From the IMG/VR virus record IMGVR_UViG_2537562194_000023, positions 1-5,371 of that record: 5,371 bases of DNA, one strand, 5' to 3'. The notes under the pieces are model-generated. The model did no database searches. It saw nothing but the letters and a program-made list of their open reading frames with translations, and was not told the DNA's origin. Shown one piece after another: positions 1-5,371 of the stretch (position 1 is its first letter; each line of letters starts with the position of its first letter). The position numbers were made by a program, and so were the translations under genes. The DNA is from a virus. Its lineage: Duplodnaviria; Heunggongvirae; Uroviricota; Caudoviricetes.

Positions 1-261
1 CTGAGTTTTTAAGTGACGTAAAACCGTGTTGAGGCCAACGCCCATAATGCGTGCACTGGCGCGACATCCGACGCCATTCATGGCCATATCAATGATTTTC
101 TGGTGCGTACCGGGCTGAGAGGCGGTGTAAGTGAACTGTAGTTGCCATGTTTTACGGCAAGGAGAGCAGAGATAGCGCTGATGTCCGGCAGTGCTTTTGC
201 CGTTACGCACCACGCCTTCAGTAGCGGAGCAGGAAGGACATCTGATGGAAATGGAAGCCAC
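1..261 (-). CDS. insA: IS1 InsA (transposition regulator), GTG start at 261-259, 3' end cut by the window edge
   Basis: Minus-strand translation from the GTG at 261 gives [87 protein letters not shown], which is 87 codons to position 1. This matches recalled IS1 InsA (zinc-finger Cys pairs, helix-turn-helix region). The six-frame track missed it because the start is GTG and there is no stop in the window; the track ORF 78-290(-) is an overlapping alternative frame. Confidence 0.85.
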
Positions 262-293
262 GCAAGCACCTTAAAATCACCATCATACACTAA

Positions 294-316
294 ATCAGTA
301 AGTTGGCAGCATTACC
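294..316 (-). repeat. IS1 terminal inverted repeat (left end, 23 bp)
   Basis: The reverse complement of 294-316 is GGTAATGCTGCCAACTTACTGAT, matching the IS1 IRL consensus except for one base (GGTA vs GGTG). The other inverted repeat is outside the window, so pairing cannot be checked. Confidence 0.85.
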
Positions 317-480
317 GAGATTGTTTTGTCGGAACTGATACGCTGGCGCTAATAGGTAGTAGGGTTCTTATGCTAAACATACAACCTCTTTCTTAATTCT
401 CGAACCTGTTTAGGATTCTGTGTAAATTCAAAATAAACCTGTCTGAACATTCCTAACAAACATCCACCGGACATGACAAC

Positions 481-503
481 AAAAAACCGGAGCCGGACTC
501 CGG
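481..503 (-). terminator. Rho-independent terminator closing the minus-strand tail-fibre/small-ORF unit (weakly bidirectional)
   Basis: A perfect 6-bp GC-rich stem (CCGGAG 487-492 / CTCCGG 498-503) with a 5-nt loop. On the minus strand it is followed by six U (plus A-run 481-486); on the plus strand by four U (504-507). It sits 19 nt downstream of the ORF ending at 522. Confidence 0.6.
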
Positions 504-521
504 TTTTGTGAAGCTGTCGGG

Positions 522-770
522 TTACTTCATCCCGCCAATATTTTCCCACGTCCCGTCAGCACGCAGGATTTGCAGCGGTCTTACCACGCACTGTATCTGC
601 TTTTTATCCGCATCCAGTATCACCACCTGCATGATTACCCTGTCCTGCTCCGGAATAATACCATTCTCATCGGACTCCAGGATGTCTGCCGGCCCCAGTC
701 GCAGTTGTGCTGTAAGCGACTGCACGTGTTCACGGCCATCATGCTTTCCGCAACCACACAGACGCTGCAT
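522..770 (-). CDS. Hypothetical small prophage protein (82 aa) immediately downstream of the tail fibre gene; function unassigned, possibly a tail-fibre accessory
   Basis: ATG at 770-768 to the stop at 522. Codon usage is typical of enterobacteria (CTG, CGT, GGC rich) and the ORF is followed by the terminator at 481-503. The SD is weak (AT-rich leader AAAAAACTT before the ATG). It shows no resemblance I can recognise to lambda Tfa. It lies in the same reading frame as the upstream stf. Confidence 0.45.
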   Translation of the reverse strand: MQRLCGCGKHDGREHVQSLTAQLRLGPADILESDENGIIPEQDRVIMQVVILDADKKQIQCVVRPLQILRADGTWENIGGMK

Positions 771-791
771 AAGTTTTTTAGTATATTCATG

Positions 792-2105
792 TCATTCTCC
801 TGTTCTGCCTGTATCACTGCCCACTTCATTCAGCCCCTTAACATCCTGCCACGGCCCGTCACCAAACCTGACCTGCAAATGCCGAAACAGCCCCTGAACC
901 TGTGTGGCATCTTTGGGGTCAAGAAAGGTCAGTCCGGTGATGAGCGCACCATCTGTATCCGGGAACCAGCCATTGCTGTTTGTCTCAATAATGTTTCCCG
1001 GCCCCAGACGGAACCGTATTTGCGTCTCCCCCGGGTCGCCCTTCGGCCCCTGAGGTCCGGTTGCCCCCACCGGGCCAGCCGCACCTGTTTCTCCTTTCGG
1101 TCCCTGTGGGCCTGCCGGGCCTGCCGCACCGGTATCTCCCTTTGGACCCTGAGGACCTGCATTTCCCGTCAGACCGGTCTCTCCCCGCTCTCCCCTGTCA
1201 CCTTTCGGCCCCTGCGGGACTGCCGGACCAGCATCACCTGCCGGTCCCCGTTCGCCGGTTGCCCCGACAGGGCCGGTGTCACCGCGCTCTCCCTTATCTC
1301 CCTTCGGCCCCTGAGGACCCGCGGGACCCGGTCCCCCCTTTGGCCCGGGAGGCCCCACCACGGTCGGGATTCGGTTTACGGCTTCTTCCGCCGCTATCCT
1401 GCTTTGTTCCGCTGACTGTGCGCTTTCTGCTGACTCCCGGGCTTTTTCTGTTGCGGTCGTTGCATCCCTGGCTGCATTACCGGCTGCACTTTCTGCCGTC
1501 TTTCTTGACAATTCAGCTTCTGCTGCACTTTGTGATGACTCACTGGCTTTTTGAGCGGCCGCAGAGGCCGAGGACGAGGACGCCTCCTCTGACTGCTTTG
1601 CAGCGGCTGCACTTTCTGCCGCCTGCCGGGCTGACTCCGATGCATCCCCTGCTGAAGTGTCAGCATTTGCAGCGTTCTCTTCTGCCTGACTGGCTGATAT
1701 GCCGGCATTCCTCGCTGATGTCTCCGCCTCTCCGGCATTCTTCTTCGCCTCCCCGGCGTGACGCGCTGCTTCTTCCACCATCAGTTCAAAACGACGCAGT
1801 GCCTCCGGCCGGACGTCATCCTCCGACATGGCACCGAGAAAATCATTCAGCGTACCGGGTCGGGAATCTTCATACACGGTGATGGTCCCGGCATGTGACG
1901 GCGGGAAGCCCTCCACCAACAGAATGACGCTGTACTGACCGTACTCAACGTCCATGCTGTAACGACCGGCTTCATCCGGATTTTCAGAGGCCACCGTGTT
2001 CACCACCACCGTGCTGCTGGTCCGTCTGGCTTTCAGTTGAATGGTGCAGTTCTCTACCGGTTTTCCTGTGCCGTCTTTCAGTACACCTGAAATCTTTACT
2101 GCCAT
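792..2105 (-). CDS. stf: Lambda Stf-like side tail fibre protein with a collagen-like (Gly-X-Y) domain
   Basis: The N-terminus [28 protein letters not shown]...[33 protein letters not shown] closely matches the lambda Stf N-terminal domain as recalled. It is followed by an Ala/Ser/Glu-rich low-complexity segment, then about 37 Gly-X-Y triplets ([19 protein letters not shown]...), then an ~76-aa non-repetitive C-terminal domain. I place the start at the ATG 2105-2103 (MAVKIS...), preceded by GTGGGGTG; the track start at the GTG 2111 adds MN and is less likely. Synteny is J-lom-stf as in lambda. This resembles the prophage collagen-like tail fibre class described in pathogenic E. coli. Confidence 0.85.
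1023..1355 (-). repeat. Collagen-like Gly-X-Y triplet repeat coding tract inside stf (GC-rich imperfect tandem repeats, GPQGPKG unit recurring)
   Basis: Protein residues 253-363 have Gly at every third position: 15 triplets, one break (V where G is expected in GPA-VPQ-GPK), then 21 triplets. At DNA level the plus strand shows recurring GGnCCnnnGGnCC-type motifs. It is coding, not a CRISPR array. Confidence 0.85.
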
Positions 2106-2116
2106 ATTCACCCCAC

Positions 2117-2143
2117 AAAAAAGCTCGCCTGAACCGGCGGGCT
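2117..2143 (-). terminator. Possible weak intrinsic terminator between lom and stf
   Basis: On the minus-strand RNA, AGCCCGCC (2143-2136) pairs with GGCGAGCU (2129-2122) with one internal C.A mismatch and a 6-nt loop, followed by UUUUU (plus 2117-2121). It is 26 nt downstream of the lom stop and just upstream of the stf start. Confidence 0.35.
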
Positions 2144-2169
2144 GTCATAACACTGTGTTACCTGGCTAA

Positions 2170-2769
2170 TCAGAACTTATAACCGACACCCACGATGAAA
2201 CCGTCAGTGCGCCAGTCGCCACTGCCGGAGCCTTCATAAGCAATATCAATGGCCACGGATTCGGTCGGGTTAAACTGCACGCCAGCCCCCCACGACAGAG
2301 ACGTGTTGCTGTGGCGACCGTCATCACTTCCGGTCAGCACATCATGCGTTTTCCCCTTGTTGTCAGTCACGCGGAGATAATCCCCGGAGAAAGTCGACAC
2401 ACGGCTGTAAGCCACGCCCGCCATCGCATACGCGCTGAACCATTCATTCACGCGCACAGACGGCCCCGCCATTACGCTGAACCAGCGGTTACGAACGGAA
2501 TCTTCATGCCAGCGGGTATCGCTGTAATGGGTCAGCTGGCGATTCTTGTCTCCTGCATAGCTGAACGACGTCACCATCCCCAGTGTGTCCGTAAACTCAT
2601 AACGGTATTTCACGTTAATCCCGTTCAGTTCATCGCTGCCAGGAACGTTCGTCGAGACATGAAGATACCCCGCGCTCAGCGTGGACTGATGTTCAGACGC
2701 CCATGCAGGCGCACCGGATACGGCCAGACAGATGGCTGCGGACAAAATGGCGGCATAAAGTTTACGCAT
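2170..2769 (-). CDS. lom: Lom outer-membrane protein (Ail/Lom/PagC/OmpX beta-barrel family), lambda lom orthologue
   Basis: The 199-aa product MRKLYAAILSAAICLAVSGAPAWASEHQSTLSAGYLH...GFIVGVGYKF is near-identical to lambda Lom as recalled. It has an N-terminal signal peptide (likely cleaved after AWA), a C-terminal aromatic residue typical of beta-barrel OMPs, and a GAGAGG SD 6 nt before the ATG at 2769. It sits between J and stf as in lambda. Confidence 0.95.
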   Translation of the reverse strand: MRKLYAAILSAAICLAVSGAPAWASEHQSTLSAGYLHVSTNVPGSDELNGINVKYRYEFTDTLGMVTSFSYAGDKNRQLTHYSDTRWHEDSVRNRWFSVMAGPSVRVNEWFSAYAMAGVAYSRVSTFSGDYLRVTDNKGKTHDVLTGSDDGRHSNTSLSWGAGVQFNPTESVAIDIAYEGSGSGDWRTDGFIVGVGYKF

Positions 2770-2793
2770 AATTACCTCTCGCTTTTCTGCAAT

Positions 2794-2817
2794 AAAAAAG
2801 GCGCCATTTCTGGCGCC
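2794..2817 (-). terminator. Rho-independent terminator downstream of the J remnant and upstream of lom
   Basis: On the minus strand, a perfect 7-bp stem GGCGCCA (2817-2811) / TGGCGCC (2806-2800) with loop GAAA is followed by six U (plus A-run 2794-2799). The plus strand has no U-tract after the stem, so it acts on the minus strand only. Confidence 0.65.
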
Positions 2818-2836
2818 CGTATATGGGTTATAAAAT

Positions 2837-3790
2837 TCAGCTGATACTGATACCTGCTGTGGATTTTTTCATCACCACAACCAGCAGATCGCTGATACTG
2901 GTTGTTGGTGTCCAGTTATTCGCTCCTGATGAAGATACGGTGAATGTCAGTGCCAGCGTCCCCTGTCCGGCAGGCATATCTATAACTGAGGAAAATACGC
3001 CCTGAACATCCGTCGTGGACTGATTAAAAATCTCCTGACCATTGCGGGTCACTCTTAACCGGCAGGTTGAATACCAGTATGACTGTTGGTTATTACTGTT
3101 GAAATTCTCATGCTTACCACCGCGGAATAACACTGGCGGTATCATGACCTGCCGGTCAAACTTCTGATCATCACCGATTCTTACCGTGATGGTGCCACTG
3201 GCATAAGTGCTCGTGCGGGGGAAAGACTTGCTGACCGTTTTGACAATATCGCCTTCAATCTGGTTGGCTGACAGTTTCCCCTTAATCTGACAGTTCTCAT
3301 TAATCGTGACGTTGTTGAGCGTCCCTGAGTTCGCATTCACACTGCCACTGATATCCGCATTTTTCGCCGTCAGTCGCCCGTCCGGCGTCAGGGAAAATGC
3401 CGGAGGATTGCCGGATGACGTGATGCTCACCGCAAACAGTCGTTTCAGGAACACGTCGTTCATGAACAGCTGATTCCCCTGCGCCACAAATAACGGCGTG
3501 CTGTTGCCGCTCTCCGGATTTATCATCGCGATACGGTCAGCCAGCAGCAGTATGTTGCTCAGTGGCTGGCCATCAGTATCCTCAATCCCTGCACCAATCC
3601 CGGCCACATAGGGAATGCCGTCTTTCGTTTTTGAACCTTCAGCATGTACAGCGCAGCCAGGTCATCATTTGTGTCCTTCTGCACGCGCTGTATCTGCTGA
3701 ATGGTGGCGCTCTGGTCTTCCTGCGTTTTACTGACCGTCTGTGTGATTTCATTGCGGGTTTCTGTGATGGTGGTCTGCATTTCCGCCATC
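2837..3790 (-). pseudogene. J: Tail tip host-specificity protein J, C-terminal remnant: 5' truncated by IS629 at 3790/3791 and carrying an internal frameshift at an A-run
   Basis: Minus-strand frame A (3790-3559) reads ...[55 protein letters not shown]... and then stops. Frame B (open from 3661 to the stop at 2837) reads ...[22 protein letters not shown]...[24 protein letters not shown]...[17 protein letters not shown], which resembles the lambda J C-terminal receptor-binding region as recalled. The two frames join cleanly if the A5 run (plus T-run 3628-3632) is restored to A6. There is no start codon or RBS for an independent gene. Position is upstream of lom, as in lambda. Confidence 0.75.
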
Positions 3791-3815
3791 TGAACCGCCC
3801 CGGAAATCCTGGAGA
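3791..3815 (+). repeat. IS629 left terminal inverted repeat
   Basis: TGAACCGCCCCGGAAATCCTGGAGA. It pairs with the reverse complement of 5076-5100 (TGAACCGCCCCGGGTTTCCTGGAGA) at 22 of 25 positions. Confidence 0.9.
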
Positions 3816-3844
3816 CTAAACTCCCTGAGAAAGAGGTAAACAGG

Positions 3845-4171
3845 ATGACTAAAAATACTCGTTTTTCCCCCGAAGTCCGTCAGCGGGCGATTCGTATGGT
3901 TCTGGAAAGTCAGGATGAATATGACTCACAGTGGGCGGCAATTTGTTCCATTGCCCCAAAGATTGGCTGTACGCCGGAGACTCTGCGTGTCTGGGTTCGC
4001 CAGCATGAGCGGGATACCGGGGGCGGTGATGGTGGGCTCACCAGCGCTGAACGTCAGCGTCTGAAAGAGCTGGAACGTGAAAATCGTGAACTGCGCCGCA
4101 GTAACGATATCCTTCGCCAGGCTTCCGCTTATTTTGCGAAGGCGGAGTTCGACCGCCTCTGGAAAAAATGA
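3845..4171 (+). CDS. IS629 OrfA (helix-turn-helix DNA-binding/regulatory protein; N-terminal part of the OrfAB transposase)
   Basis: AAGAGG SD 8 nt upstream of the ATG at 3845. The 108-aa product has a helix-turn-helix-like N-terminus and a leucine-zipper-like [21 protein letters not shown] segment typical of IS3-family OrfA. It ends in the A6 run that overlaps the orfB start. Confidence 0.95.
4160..4171 (+). other. Putative programmed -1 ribosomal frameshift window of IS629 (A6 run at the orfA stop/orfB start overlap)
   Basis: The sequence TGG AAA AAA TGA (orfA frame) overlaps ATG ATG (orfB, -1 frame). Tandem Lys codons followed directly by a stop fit the IS3-family mechanism that produces the OrfAB transposase. 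Confidence 0.6.
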
Positions 4172-5058
4172 TGCCACTGCTGGATAAGCTGCGTGAGCAG
4201 TACGGGGTCGGACCGGTATGCAGCGAACTGCATATTGCCCCGTCAACGTATTACCATTGTCAGCAACAGCGACATCATCCGGATAAACGCAGTGCCCGTG
4301 CGCAGCACGACGACTGGCTGAAGAGAGAGATACAGCGCGTATACGATGAAAATCATCAGGTGTACGGTGTGCGTAAAGTCTGGCGTCAGTTGTTACGGGA
4401 AGGAATCAGGGTGGCCAGATGTACAGTGGCACGTCTCATGGCGGTTATGGGACTTGCCGGTGTTCTCCGGGGTAAAAAGGTCCGTACGACCATCAGCCGG
4501 AAAGCCGTTGCCGCAGGCGACCGCGTAAACCGTCAGTTCGTGGCAGAACGACCTGACCAGCTGTGGGTGGCTGATTTTACTTACGTCAGCACATGGCAGG
4601 GCTTCGTCTATGTGGCGTTTATCATTGATGTGTTTGCCGGATACATCGTGGGGTGGCGGGTCTCATCGTCTATGGAAACGACATTCGTGCTGGATGCGCT
4701 GGAGCAGGCGTTGTGGGCCCGTCGTCCGTCTGGCACCATCCATCACAGCGATAAAGGCTCTCAGTATGTGTCACTGGCCTATACGGAGCGACTAAAAGAA
4801 GCCGGATTACTGGCATCAACAGGGAGTACAGGCGACTCGTATGACAACGCGATGGCTGAGAGCATCAATGGTCTTTACAAAGCGGAGGTAATACACCGTA
4901 AGAGCTGGAAAAACCGTGCAGAAGTGGAACTGGCCACACTAACGTGGGTGGACTGGTATAACAATCGACGATTGCTGGGAAGGCTGGGCCATACTCCTCC
5001 GGCAGAAGCAGAAAAAGCTTATTATGCTTCCATCGGAAACGATGATCTGGCAGCCTGA
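4168..5058 (+). CDS. IS629 OrfB (DDE transposase catalytic domain; normally expressed as an OrfAB fusion by -1 frameshifting)
   Basis: The 296-aa product carries the rve/integrase-type DDE core (e.g. ...[31 protein letters not shown]..., ...[11 protein letters not shown]..., ...[18 protein letters not shown]...) in the -1 frame relative to orfA. Its ATG (4168-4170) overlaps the orfA stop (4169-4171). Confidence 0.9.
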
Positions 5059-5075
5059 GTTCACAGATAAAACAC

Positions 5076-5100
5076 TCTCCAGGAAACCCGGGGCGGTTCA
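5076..5100 (-). repeat. IS629 right terminal inverted repeat
   Basis: The reverse complement of 5076-5100 is TGAACCGCCCCGGGTTTCCTGGAGA, matching the left inverted repeat apart from 3 central mismatches. Confidence 0.9.
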
Positions 5101-5371
5101 TTTTAATTGAAAGAGCAATTACCGAACAAAAGACGCTGACTATATACTCAAAACCAAACAACAATTCTGCCAATCAGGTATCATGGCAACACACGGAATT
5201 ACCATGTTTTTGCCTTCTCTGCCCATACAATACGGGCATATACTTCATACTCTATTGTAATATTTCTATCCATGCGCCCCACTCCATTTACCTGTAAATA
5301 ATATTCAAAATATTTATCACAGAAATCGTTTTTGGCCATGAACTGAGCACACTATAAAGTCCGGAACTGAC

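Follow-up and report, generated by a model that had tools for sequence, protein, structure and literature searches.

The closest described counterpart of the fiber analyzed here is EPclA of Escherichia coli O157:H7 Sakai (ECs2717, ECs2941/H0004), in which the segments PfN, PCoil, Col and PfC occur in the same order and with the same lengths (Ghosh 2012, PLoS One 7:e37872). This fiber class is thus already known, having been cloned and biophysically characterized in 2012 (PMC3368898). The recombinant protein, obtained from Sakai genomic DNA and closest to ECs2717 among deposited sequences, is a trimer with the CD signatures of collagen and coiled coil (PMC3368898). Full-length recombinant EPclA folds as a complete dumbbell, its PCoil is trimeric and helical, PfC trimerizes alone, and the canonical collagen domain has a Tm of 42 °C (Ghosh 2012, PMC3368898). 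EPclA, like the gene described here, occupies the slot after lom and is followed by a coupled ORF.

Other fibers share part of this design. EPclB (Z1483/ECs1228, 933W/Sp5) has PfN, PCoil, GPQGPK-style collagen repeats and the PfC end, but it contains two collagen domains split by a Pf2 repeat, the first with a conserved G-X-P-G-G-P-X-G interruption. The S74-type EPclD shares PfN, PCoil and the GPQGPK-style repeats, with a peptidase S74 chaperone domain at its C terminus. In the Stf of phage lambda the distal part is a long rod of the gp37-like kind with an OmpC-binding tip, in place of which the present fiber has collagen and a 64-aa PfC knob. Ur-lambda Stf (PDB 9E7M/9MGH; Sci Adv 2025, PMC12617516), whose gene also follows J and lom, shares the collar domain, to which a linker and then a proximal rod, a trimeric coiled coil, are joined there; twelve copies of the N-domain encircle the gpV-gpM junction as a collar and give rise to four trimeric fibers (PMC12617516). 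Docking of the N-domain on lambda tails was therefore already visualized in 2025 (PMC12617516) and, as both the fiber class and its docking have been described, the present locus carries little weight as a discovery.

Architecture of the fiber

The window, meaning the whole stretch of DNA analyzed (5,371 bp), carries on its minus strand a gene for a 437-aa protein (ATG at 2105, stop codon at 792-794; ORF list and translation), with GTG at 2111 as an alternative start. Its features and those of the neighboring genes are listed in Table 1. Taking the evidence jointly, it is probable that this gene encodes an EPclA-type side tail fiber of a lambda-like prophage in a pathogenic E. coli and that its Val allele represents a change of one O111 lineage, spread by recombination and locally destabilizing.

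Table 1. Features of the window, grouped by locus, with strand and supporting evidence.
Feature	Position	Strand	Basis
EPclA-type side tail fiber gene	792..2105	-	ORF translation; PF08400 + PF01391 + PF06820; PHROG tail fiber families
N-terminal collar domain, residues 1-93, putative tail-docking part	1827..2105	-	Ur-lambda Stf chain match
Ala/Ser/Glu-rich coiled coil (PCoil), residues 134-250	1356..1706	-	Heptads, predicted helix, Ghosh 2012
Collagen-like domain, residues 251-361, 37 in-phase triplets, 36 with Gly	1023..1355	-	Triplet parsing, Pfam Collagen
Codon 258 GGA, Gly at X of triplet 3 (GPK-GGP)	1332..1334	-	Only in-gene difference from 95NR1 copy
Val296 codon GTC (canonical GGC), first Gly of second GPQGPK motif	1218..1220	-	Codon table
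PfC C-terminal domain, about residues 362-426, distal trimerization knob	828..1022	-	PF06820; Ghosh 2012
11-residue tail after PfC	795-827	-	
Free-standing PfC-only ORF, 82 aa from internal ATG	522..770	-	PF06820, E 6e-35
Terminator-like hairpin and T-run, directly past PfC-only ORF	483..507	-	Consensus scan, pattern match
lom, Ail/Lom outer-membrane beta-barrel, immediately upstream of fiber	2170..2769	-	PF06316, E 4e-120
J tail-tip protein, C-terminal fragment, rest removed by IS1203	2837..3607	-	PF12421, PF09327
IS1203 (IS3 family) orfA/orfB, inserted in J	3845..5058	+	Pfam HTH_Tnp_1, rve; RefSeq annotation
ALIL frameshift pseudoknot of IS1203	4126-4242	+	Rfam RF01497, 121 bits

From N to C terminus the protein comprises a lambda Stf-type domain, an Ala/Ser/Glu-rich segment, 37 triplets and a 64-aa PF06820 domain. 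A profile search, as proposed in an earlier reading of the sequence without database searches (the sequence-only reading), matched collagen and the phage-fiber N- and C-terminal families (Pfam): PF08400 phage_tail_N spans residues 1-133 over its full profile (E 3.3e-69), PF01391 Collagen reaches 59.5 bits against a cut-off of 27.2 (E 3e-16), and PF06820 Phage_fiber_C covers residues 363-426, again over the full profile (E 2.9e-34). These matches bear out the lambda Stf-type side tail fiber with a collagen domain and the short C-terminal domain which that reading had recognized, and its remark that the class is known from prophages of pathogenic E. coli agrees with EPclA of EHEC (Ghosh 2012, PMC3368898). 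The dimensions match EPclA exactly (437 aa in total, 116 in PCoil and 111 in Col; Ghosh 2012, PMC3368898), 424 of the 437 residues (97%) are identical to H0004 of VT1-Sakai, and the gene occurs at ~97% DNA identity in 141 phage records, isolated Stx phages among them.

Residues 1-93 align to the entire Stf chain of PDB 9E7M/9MGH with ~90% identity (E 2e-53), from which we infer that the N-domain of the fiber docks on the tail. Four fibers per virion would thus establish an initial, reversible cell contact, with the PfC knob at their distal end.

The segment between the collar and the collagen had been taken for a low-complexity linker, an assignment that has to be replaced by a structured trimeric coiled coil on the basis of its heptads, a confidently predicted helix and experiments on EPclA (Ghosh 2012). 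Residues 134-250 are rich in Ala (32%), Ser (19%) and Glu (14%) and contain ~7% Ile, Val and Leu combined, and they show a strong 3.5-residue periodicity of the form A-x-x-S, with Ala at heptad position a and Ser or Ala at d. An AlphaFold2 model of the full-length monomer places a helix at residues 98-244 (pLDDT 80-93), although with a mean pLDDT of 51 and ~30 over the collagen segment it is uninformative on the tolerance of the break described below.

The collagen-like domain is exactly 111 residues long and consists, in a single phase, of 15 Gly-X-Y triplets, VPQ and 21 further Gly-X-Y triplets; the earlier estimate of about 37 Gly-X-Y triplets therefore holds for the triplet positions, 36 of which carry Gly. 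Five 33-nt direct repeats encode the motif GPQ-GPK-G(D/E)x. Among homologs the number of triplets ranges from 4 to 38, and the length variants are deletions between the five copies of the GPQ-GPK-G motif, in accordance with the recombination-prone repetitive DNA that the sequence-only reading had anticipated. The same reading expected both repeat number and interruptions to vary between copies, of which the former is observed and the latter is not: VPQ is the sole single-triplet break in 240 fetched proteins and ~200 fetched loci. A second peculiarity of this domain lies at codon 258, where relatives carry GAA (Glu, giving a K-G-E triplet); GGA is private to this contig, and GPKGGP was found in no other fetched locus or protein.

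The three chains would associate through the Ala/Ser heptads of PCoil and through the C-terminal PfC knob, and the 111-residue Gly-X-Y segment between them would form a collagen triple helix, the whole molecule being a hinged dumbbell ~55-62 nm long. This trimeric, triple-helical picture relies on homology and on the published experiments with near-identical proteins. Other ORFs overlap this region, two long ones over the collagen segment on the plus strand (570-1415 and 1061-1882) and one in a different frame of the coding strand (1394-1738); none has a family match, and they were taken as by-products of the GC-rich repeats.

The C-terminal domain and its coupled paralog

In lambda, stf is followed by tfa, whose product is the cognate chaperone of Stf. 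The window has no intact tfa, and the PfC-only ORF lies in its place. This ORF, which the sequence-only reading had named as a possible partner without recognizing its kinship, is a paralog of the PfC domain of the fiber itself (37% identity) and occurs after all 98 PfC-type fibers checked (98/98), with none after the EPclD fiber in the one locus examined. In its canonical form the small gene encodes 89 aa and starts at 789-791; the window has A6 instead of A7 (~776-781), which causes a frameshift and inactivates the canonical start. The junction between fiber and small ORF (TGAcATG, preceded by AGGAG at a distance of 6 nt) recurs in 97/98 loci, and the fiber stop codon is identical together with it. 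Read-through of this stop codon into the small ORF was considered and rejected, since fiber and small ORF share a frame in the window only through the shorter A-run, whereas canonical loci place the small ORF at +1. P0008 and P0011, "fusion" proteins of 494 aa, result from frameshifts, and multi-repeat matches of the PfC profile in the long proteins P0253 and P0279 are spurious, belonging to other beta-repeat families (CarboxypepD_reg, SprB). The hairpin past the PfC-only ORF, a pattern match, is the likely end of the late operon.

A search of PDB sequences with a profile of the PfC alignment gave chance-level matches only (best E 0.04), the AlphaFold2 model of the PfC-only protein has a pLDDT of 58.5, a level at which fold matches would carry no meaning, and the literature found describes no function for the free-standing paralog. 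One speculative extension, which we consider rather unlikely as a whole, is that EPclA has a two-component tip: the 89-aa paralog, translationally coupled to the fiber gene through the TGAcATG junction, would co-assemble with the PfC of the fiber or cap it and so supply or modulate receptor binding, and fibers with Val at residue 296 would be tolerated in virions, still assembling because the collagen segment is clamped at both ends. The coupled paralog is the likeliest place to seek cell recognition by these short-tipped fibers.

The Gly296Val replacement

The break had been described as GPA-VPQ-GPK with Gly changed to Val, and the sequence is read exactly so, with GTC at residue 296. A single transversion, GGC>GTC, accounts for it; it falls in motif two of the five GPQGPK motifs and yields a G5G-type interruption in which the triplet phase is kept; therefore no register shift in triplet phase is implied. 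Of the predicted kink or register shift, what stands is the expectation of a local bulge or destabilization. Compared with EPclA, the window fiber has Gly296 changed to Val, as the one interruption in a family otherwise uninterrupted, together with Glu258 changed to Gly and a decayed prophage around it. With the length of 111 aa and the phase preserved, it is a member of EPclA bearing a point change and no separate architecture.

In a homotrimer, Val296 would set three bulky side chains on the axis of the helix. Gly replacements are destabilizing in the order Val > Ser > Ala, with Val among the worse, and recombinant bacterial collagens that carry them are still triple-helical and less stable (PMC10765305). 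On these grounds we infer that Val296 makes the helix bulge locally and melt at a lower temperature and is no designed hinge. Gly substitutions of the osteogenesis imperfecta type, as modeled in recombinant Scl2, likewise place a single Gly-to-Val change in all three chains of a homotrimer; the present case differs in being a natural allele of a phage fiber clamped at both ends, with no hydroxyproline or chaperone system. As a natural Gly-to-Val change in a homotrimeric bacterial collagen whose parent has a Tm of 42 °C, Gly296Val offers a ready test case for the tolerance of interruptions.

The Val allele is present at 11 places in 3 of the 5426 complete E. coli genomes, compared with 4394 places in 714 genomes for Gly, and accounts for ~0.25% of all matches to the local 45-mer. 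In IMG/VR it occurs in 1 contig, as opposed to at least 120 with Gly, and none of 50,697 phage records contains it. Codon 296 reads GGC in 59 of 66 distinct copies, GGT in 3, GGA in 2 and GTC in 2. Val296 is thus a rare allele of one lineage and no variable feature of the family.

Each of the three genomes carries the allele at 3-4 places, out of approximately 9-11 that match. Three backgrounds are represented: a copy at the trp locus (L001), a prophage at ssrA (L002) and a prophage on the pphA side (L201). The last is a clean mosaic, of L002 type over CDS positions 1-807 and of window type over 808-1314. Over CDS 808-1157 (350 nt) the Val copies are all identical, whereas each of 64 distinct Gly copies has at least one difference from the window in this stretch, the median being ~10 sites. 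An identical 350-nt patch on three paralogous backgrounds indicates recombination between prophages, and makes a small, clean case of exchange between co-resident lambdoid prophages. The allele would have arisen in one O111 lineage, from which three or more prophage fiber genes received it by recombination or gene conversion on a patch of 350 nt or longer. All Val copies read in complete genomes are intact 437-aa ORFs, and one belongs to a prophage whose J and tail genes are intact; the allele has therefore escaped purging, and its product may be fully usable. The notion that Val is confined to dead prophages was rejected because of this last copy, whose prophage has its portal annotated as frameshifted.

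That each genome keeps 3-4 intact copies, on different backgrounds (three in all) and once beside an intact J, would also be expected if Val296 were a selected second flexible hinge in the shaft, as in non-fibrillar collagens, spread through better adsorption or assembly. Charged K-G-D and R-G-E triplets follow the break, and such triplets are reported to be enriched near natural interruptions (PMC11923368); moreover, with trimerization domains clamping the collagen at both ends folding need not stall. These triplets belong, however, to the canonical sequence and show no co-selection, and recombination between prophages spreads an allele among paralogs without selection. The restriction to a single lineage, the absence from phage records and the status of VPQ as the only such break argue against a hinge as well, as does the choice of one of the more destabilizing replacements in a domain with a Tm of merely 42 °C. 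Selection for a hinge is thus improbable, and a recombination-spread, locally destabilizing change is preferred.

Prophage context

The gene order J-lom-stf is that of lambda, and in the late operon the fiber gene stands in the slot of stf. The prophage copy is a decayed relic, a state not recognized in the sequence-only reading, with J cut by IS1203, an IS1 downstream of the fiber locus and the morphogenesis genes gone. RefSeq labels the J equivalent of 95NR1 as "missing N-terminus," and further downstream only a "tail assembly protein" remnant is annotated in relatives. Any use of the fiber of this relic would have to be in trans, by prophages resident in the same cell.

An intact ORF kept in a prophage unable to build tails, next to lom and effector cargo, might suggest a bacterial collagen-like surface or adhesion factor with no part in the virion, by analogy with streptococcal Scl and Bacillus BclA, since collagen-like proteins of other pathogens have such roles (Ghosh 2012, PMC3368898). 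This is very doubtful for a protein whose N-domain shares ~90% identity with the collar domain that lambda Stf displays on virions, whose gene lies in the stf slot and recurs in isolated phages, and which has no obvious N-terminal secretion signal when the sequence is inspected by eye. A virion side tail fiber remains the preferred assignment.

The window is an entire draft contig with IS elements at its bounds, and its right end maps ~380 kb away in related complete genomes. It may hold errors in the A6 run, at codon 258 and in the join across IS1203. For a short contig from a multi-copy gene these features, including the A6/A7 difference and the private codon 258, might suggest that the break itself is a sequencing or assembly artifact, but for the Val codon this is refuted: three genomes that were finished independently each carry the same GTC at 3-4 places, as does one IMG/VR contig, and Val is therefore real.

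Equally negligible is the view of the gene as a truncated remnant of a longer lambda-Stf-like fiber that has lost its receptor-binding C-terminal half, a possibility raised in the sequence-only reading: although the protein is far shorter than lambda Stf, and the prophage around it is decayed with a tail assembly remnant downstream in relatives, it is full-length, 437 aa ending in PfC being the commonest, canonical form, which hundreds of genomes and also isolated phages retain, with the same stop codon and coupled junction in 97/98 loci, and folding as a complete dumbbell when produced recombinantly (Ghosh 2012).

The fibre gene and the prophage that carries it

The gene encodes a complete, canonical EPclA-type collagen-like side tail fibre that lies in a decayed prophage, and the protein class is well characterised and already known, a previous sequence-only reading having placed it among prophages of pathogenic Escherichia coli. 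Collagen as well as phage-fibre N- and C-terminal profiles are matched in Pfam (see table below) and PHROGs assigns the protein to tail-fibre families. The EPclA proteins of enterohaemorrhagic E. coli (EHEC) prophages are built as PfN-PCoil-Col-PfC (N-terminal collar, coiled coil, collagen-like domain and C-terminal knob), and their common form has 437 aa with a PCoil of 116 aa and a collagen domain of 111 aa (Ghosh et al., 2012, PMC3368898), dimensions exactly equal to those of the window's fibre. VT1-Sakai H0004 shares 424 of the 437 residues, and of the 5426 complete E. coli genomes about 690 carry the fibre DNA at 95–99% identity (at most 17 matching places per genome), as do 141 phage records at about 97%, isolated Stx-converting phages among them. 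The size match and this wide conservation rule out that the gene is the front half of a longer fibre, a fragment origin that had been named earlier as a refuting possibility.

Features of the window and of two other prophages carrying the Val allele
Feature	Position	Strand	Evidence or remark
Fibre gene	ATG at 2105, stop codon 792-794	(-)	437 aa; ORF and translation
PF08400 (prophage tail fibre N-terminal)	residues 1-133	(-)	Pfam, E 3e-69
PF01391 (collagen)	in fibre protein	(-)	Pfam, E 3e-16
PF06820 (prophage tail fibre C-terminus, PfC)	residues 363-426	(-)	Pfam, E 3e-34
Val296 codon GTC	1218-1220	(-)	residue 296 in GPA-VPQ-GPK
PfC-only ORF	522-770	(-)	82 aa from internal ATG; PF06820, E 6e-35
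Canonical start of PfC-only gene	ATG at 789-791	(-)	
Terminator-like hairpin and T-run	483-507	(-)	strong, 11-bp stem; directly 3' of PfC-only ORF
Terminator-like hairpin and T-run	2799-2818	(-)	between J and lom
lom	2170-2769	(-)	
J, C-terminal part only	2837-3607	(-)	rest cut off by IS1203
IS1203 (IS3 family)	3790-5100		inserted in tail-tip gene J
IS1203 orfA/orfB	3845-5058	(+)	
ALIL programmed-frameshift pseudoknot	4126-4242		within IS1203; Rfam RF01497, 121 bits
IS1 InsA fragment	~1-290		left end of window
L201, pphA-side prophage	95NR1 2186570-2220621		intact J; tail module largely complete
L002, ssrA prophage	8B 1283431-1311475		J annotated as frameshifted; tail module largely complete

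The assignment of the N-terminal domain to the lambda Stf type holds, as fibre residues 1-93 match the Ur-lambda Stf chain along its full length (9E7M/9MGH; about 90% identity, E 2e-53). In Ur-lambda a collar holds four trimeric fibres via flexible 10-residue linkers and the side fibres accelerate adsorption through first cell contact (PMC12617516); because of the 90% identity the window's fibre would dock on the tail in the same way, with a coiled coil and a collagen helix as its shaft and the PfC knob as its distal tip. The Ala/Ser/Glu-rich stretch (residues 134-250), previously described as a low-complexity linker, is instead a rod: it reads in sevens with Ala first and Ser or Ala fourth in nearly every heptad, has a strong 3.5-residue periodicity, and a single-chain AlphaFold2 model has one long helix there (residues 98-244, pLDDT 80-93). 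Electron microscopy shows EPclA as a dumbbell, about 55-62 nm long, that is hinged between PCoil and Col (Ghosh et al., 2012, PMC3368898). Long ORFs on the opposite strand (570-1415 and 1061-1882) and in an alternative frame (1394-1738, minus strand) cross the part of the gene that encodes collagen and PCoil; none matches Pfam, and the GC-rich repeats with their scarcity of stop codons probably account for them.

The gene order J-lom-fibre is lambda-like. The window is the entire draft contig AEZV02000061.1 of GCA_000194355.2, and its closest complete relatives are 95NR1, 95JB1 and 8B (99.6% identity over positions 1-5100), strain 8B being recorded as O111:H8. The same locus in 95NR1 lies beside the trp operon with head and tail genes gone, hence the window's copy belongs to a prophage unable to build a tail. 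In the related complete genomes the 290 bases past IS1203 (5080-5371) have their 100% match some 380 kb away from the fibre locus (95NR1 position 2228265), where IS1203 is followed by a different sequence. Possible causes are a chimeric draft contig, joined across the IS copy, and a rearrangement in the strain.

A rare glycine-to-valine allele in the collagen domain

The triplet array (residues 251-361) comprises 15 Gly-X-Y triplets, VPQ and 21 further Gly-X-Y triplets in a single phase, with Gly in 36 of 37 positions, in agreement with the roughly 37 triplets and the one GPA-VPQ-GPK break counted earlier. The break is a single GGC>GTC change, classed as a G5G interruption in the GnG nomenclature (PMC11923368). 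As it is a substitution that leaves the phase unaltered on either side, a shift of triplet phase is not implied, and of the "local kink or register shift" previously proposed only a local effect is expected.

The frequency of both alleles was examined with paired 45-mers carrying the changed base at the centre, each of which finds its own allele only because a central mismatch leaves no 28-nt seed. Among the complete E. coli genomes the Val allele occurs at 11 places in 3 of 5426, which are the window's nearest relatives 95NR1, 95JB1 and 8B, and the Gly allele at 4394 places in 714; in IMG/VR the counts are one contig and at least 120, and none of 50,697 phage records contains the Val allele. 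Codon 296 in the 66 distinct full-length copies fetched is GGC (59), GGT (3), GGA (2) or GTC (2). No single-triplet break other than VPQ was found in 240 proteins and about 200 loci; interruptions are therefore not a variable trait of the family, contrary to what had been supposed, and the break at 296 is a rare allele of one lineage. Codon 258 (window 1332-1334) is GGA, placing Gly in an X position (GPK-GGP) that counts as a mild interruption (PMC11923368); of all fetched sequences only this contig has it, every relative having GAA (Glu), which gives a K-G-E triplet.

Repeat number does vary (4 to 38 triplets per homologue, commonly 37, 27, 26 and 19), and the suspected proneness of the repetitive DNA to recombination is borne out by triplet-by-triplet alignment, in which each shorter form has lost the stretch from one repeated motif to another. 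The end-points are mostly copies of GPQ-GPK-G(D/E)x, present five times in the 37-triplet form as 33-nt direct repeats (70-82% identity to the reference copy); in the 15-triplet form the deletion runs between two GAT triplets. Val296 occupies the first Gly of the second motif copy.

A sequencing error is excluded for the Val codon, found at 3-4 places in each of the three complete genomes. Three of these copies were read: the trp-locus copy of 95NR1 differs from the window by 1 nt within the gene, the ssrA-prophage copy of 8B by 32 nt (17 synonymous and 13 non-synonymous codons), and the pphA-side copy of 95NR1 is a clean mosaic of ssrA type (CDS 1-807) and window type (CDS 808-1314). CDS 808-1157 is identical in all Val copies; across this tract each of 64 distinct Gly copies has at least one difference from the window, the median being about 10 sites. 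On these alignments the simplest reading is that one mutation travelled within a patch, 350 nt long or more, which was exchanged among co-resident prophages via recombination or gene conversion. The pphA-side prophage has its J and tail genes intact and a portal gene annotated as frameshifted; a further copy of IS1203 interrupts its nleC.

Val ranks with the more destabilising substitutes for Gly (Val > Ser > Ala); recombinant bacterial collagens that carry such changes still form a triple helix, though one of lower thermal stability, and folding suffers most where the change lies close to the nucleating domain (PMC10765305). Since Val296 is mid-domain (15 triplets on the PCoil side, 21 on the PfC side) and the collagen segment is held at both ends by trimerisation domains, the fibre is predicted still to trimerise, bulging locally and having a lowered Tm. 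For the EPclA collagen domain the melting temperature is 42 C (Ghosh et al., 2012, PMC3368898), so that even the canonical margin over gut temperature is small. An adaptive role as an extra hinge is disfavoured, because the allele is rare, is confined to one lineage and is missing from the phage records. What is new here is this rare allele alone, passed between prophage copies within one O111 lineage, which makes a neat natural test case and no surprise.

The downstream PfC-only gene and the PfC module

The ORF directly downstream of the fibre gene encodes a PfC domain only (37% identity to the fibre's own PfC). In its canonical form it has 89 aa, an ATG one base past the fibre's TGA (TGAcATG) and AGGAG 6 nt upstream; it stands after all 98 uncut PfC-type fibres, with an identical junction in 97, and is absent after the one S74-type fibre locus examined. 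The hairpin 3' of it suggests that it closes the late operon. With 78 representative clusters among 1.84 billion proteins the family is narrow, sequence search finds no relative of solved structure, and the ORF is undiscussed in Ghosh et al. (2012), a literature search having found no paper that treats it. EPclA PfC trimerises by itself, and as both recombinant EPclA and PfC do so without the PfC-only protein (Ghosh et al., 2012, PMC3368898), the latter is dispensable for folding in vitro; it is possibly a tip partner of the fibre.

In the window the A-run at about 776-781 (within 771-791) is A6, not A7, which frameshifts the canonical start and leaves an ORF whose internal ATG has no obvious ribosome-binding site. 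This may be a sequencing error, since another draft contig (L084) has A6 plus a further single-base indel and the complete-genome loci L001 (trp-locus copy in 95NR1), L002 and L201 all have A7, as do nearly all IMG/VR loci. Two proteins of 494 aa (P0008 and P0011) that look like fusions of the fibre and the small ORF were rejected as stop-codon read-through; they result from a frameshift within the fibre's PfC, past which the reading frame continues into the +1-frame gene downstream.

In a 565-aa protein of the representative library (P0267) four PfC-like modules stand in tandem, each about 70 aa long with ...ADGTW.EIPA.KG at its end, and lead directly into a collagen array, an adjacency which suggests that PfC is a reusable small knob module tied to collagen segments outside Escherichia phages.
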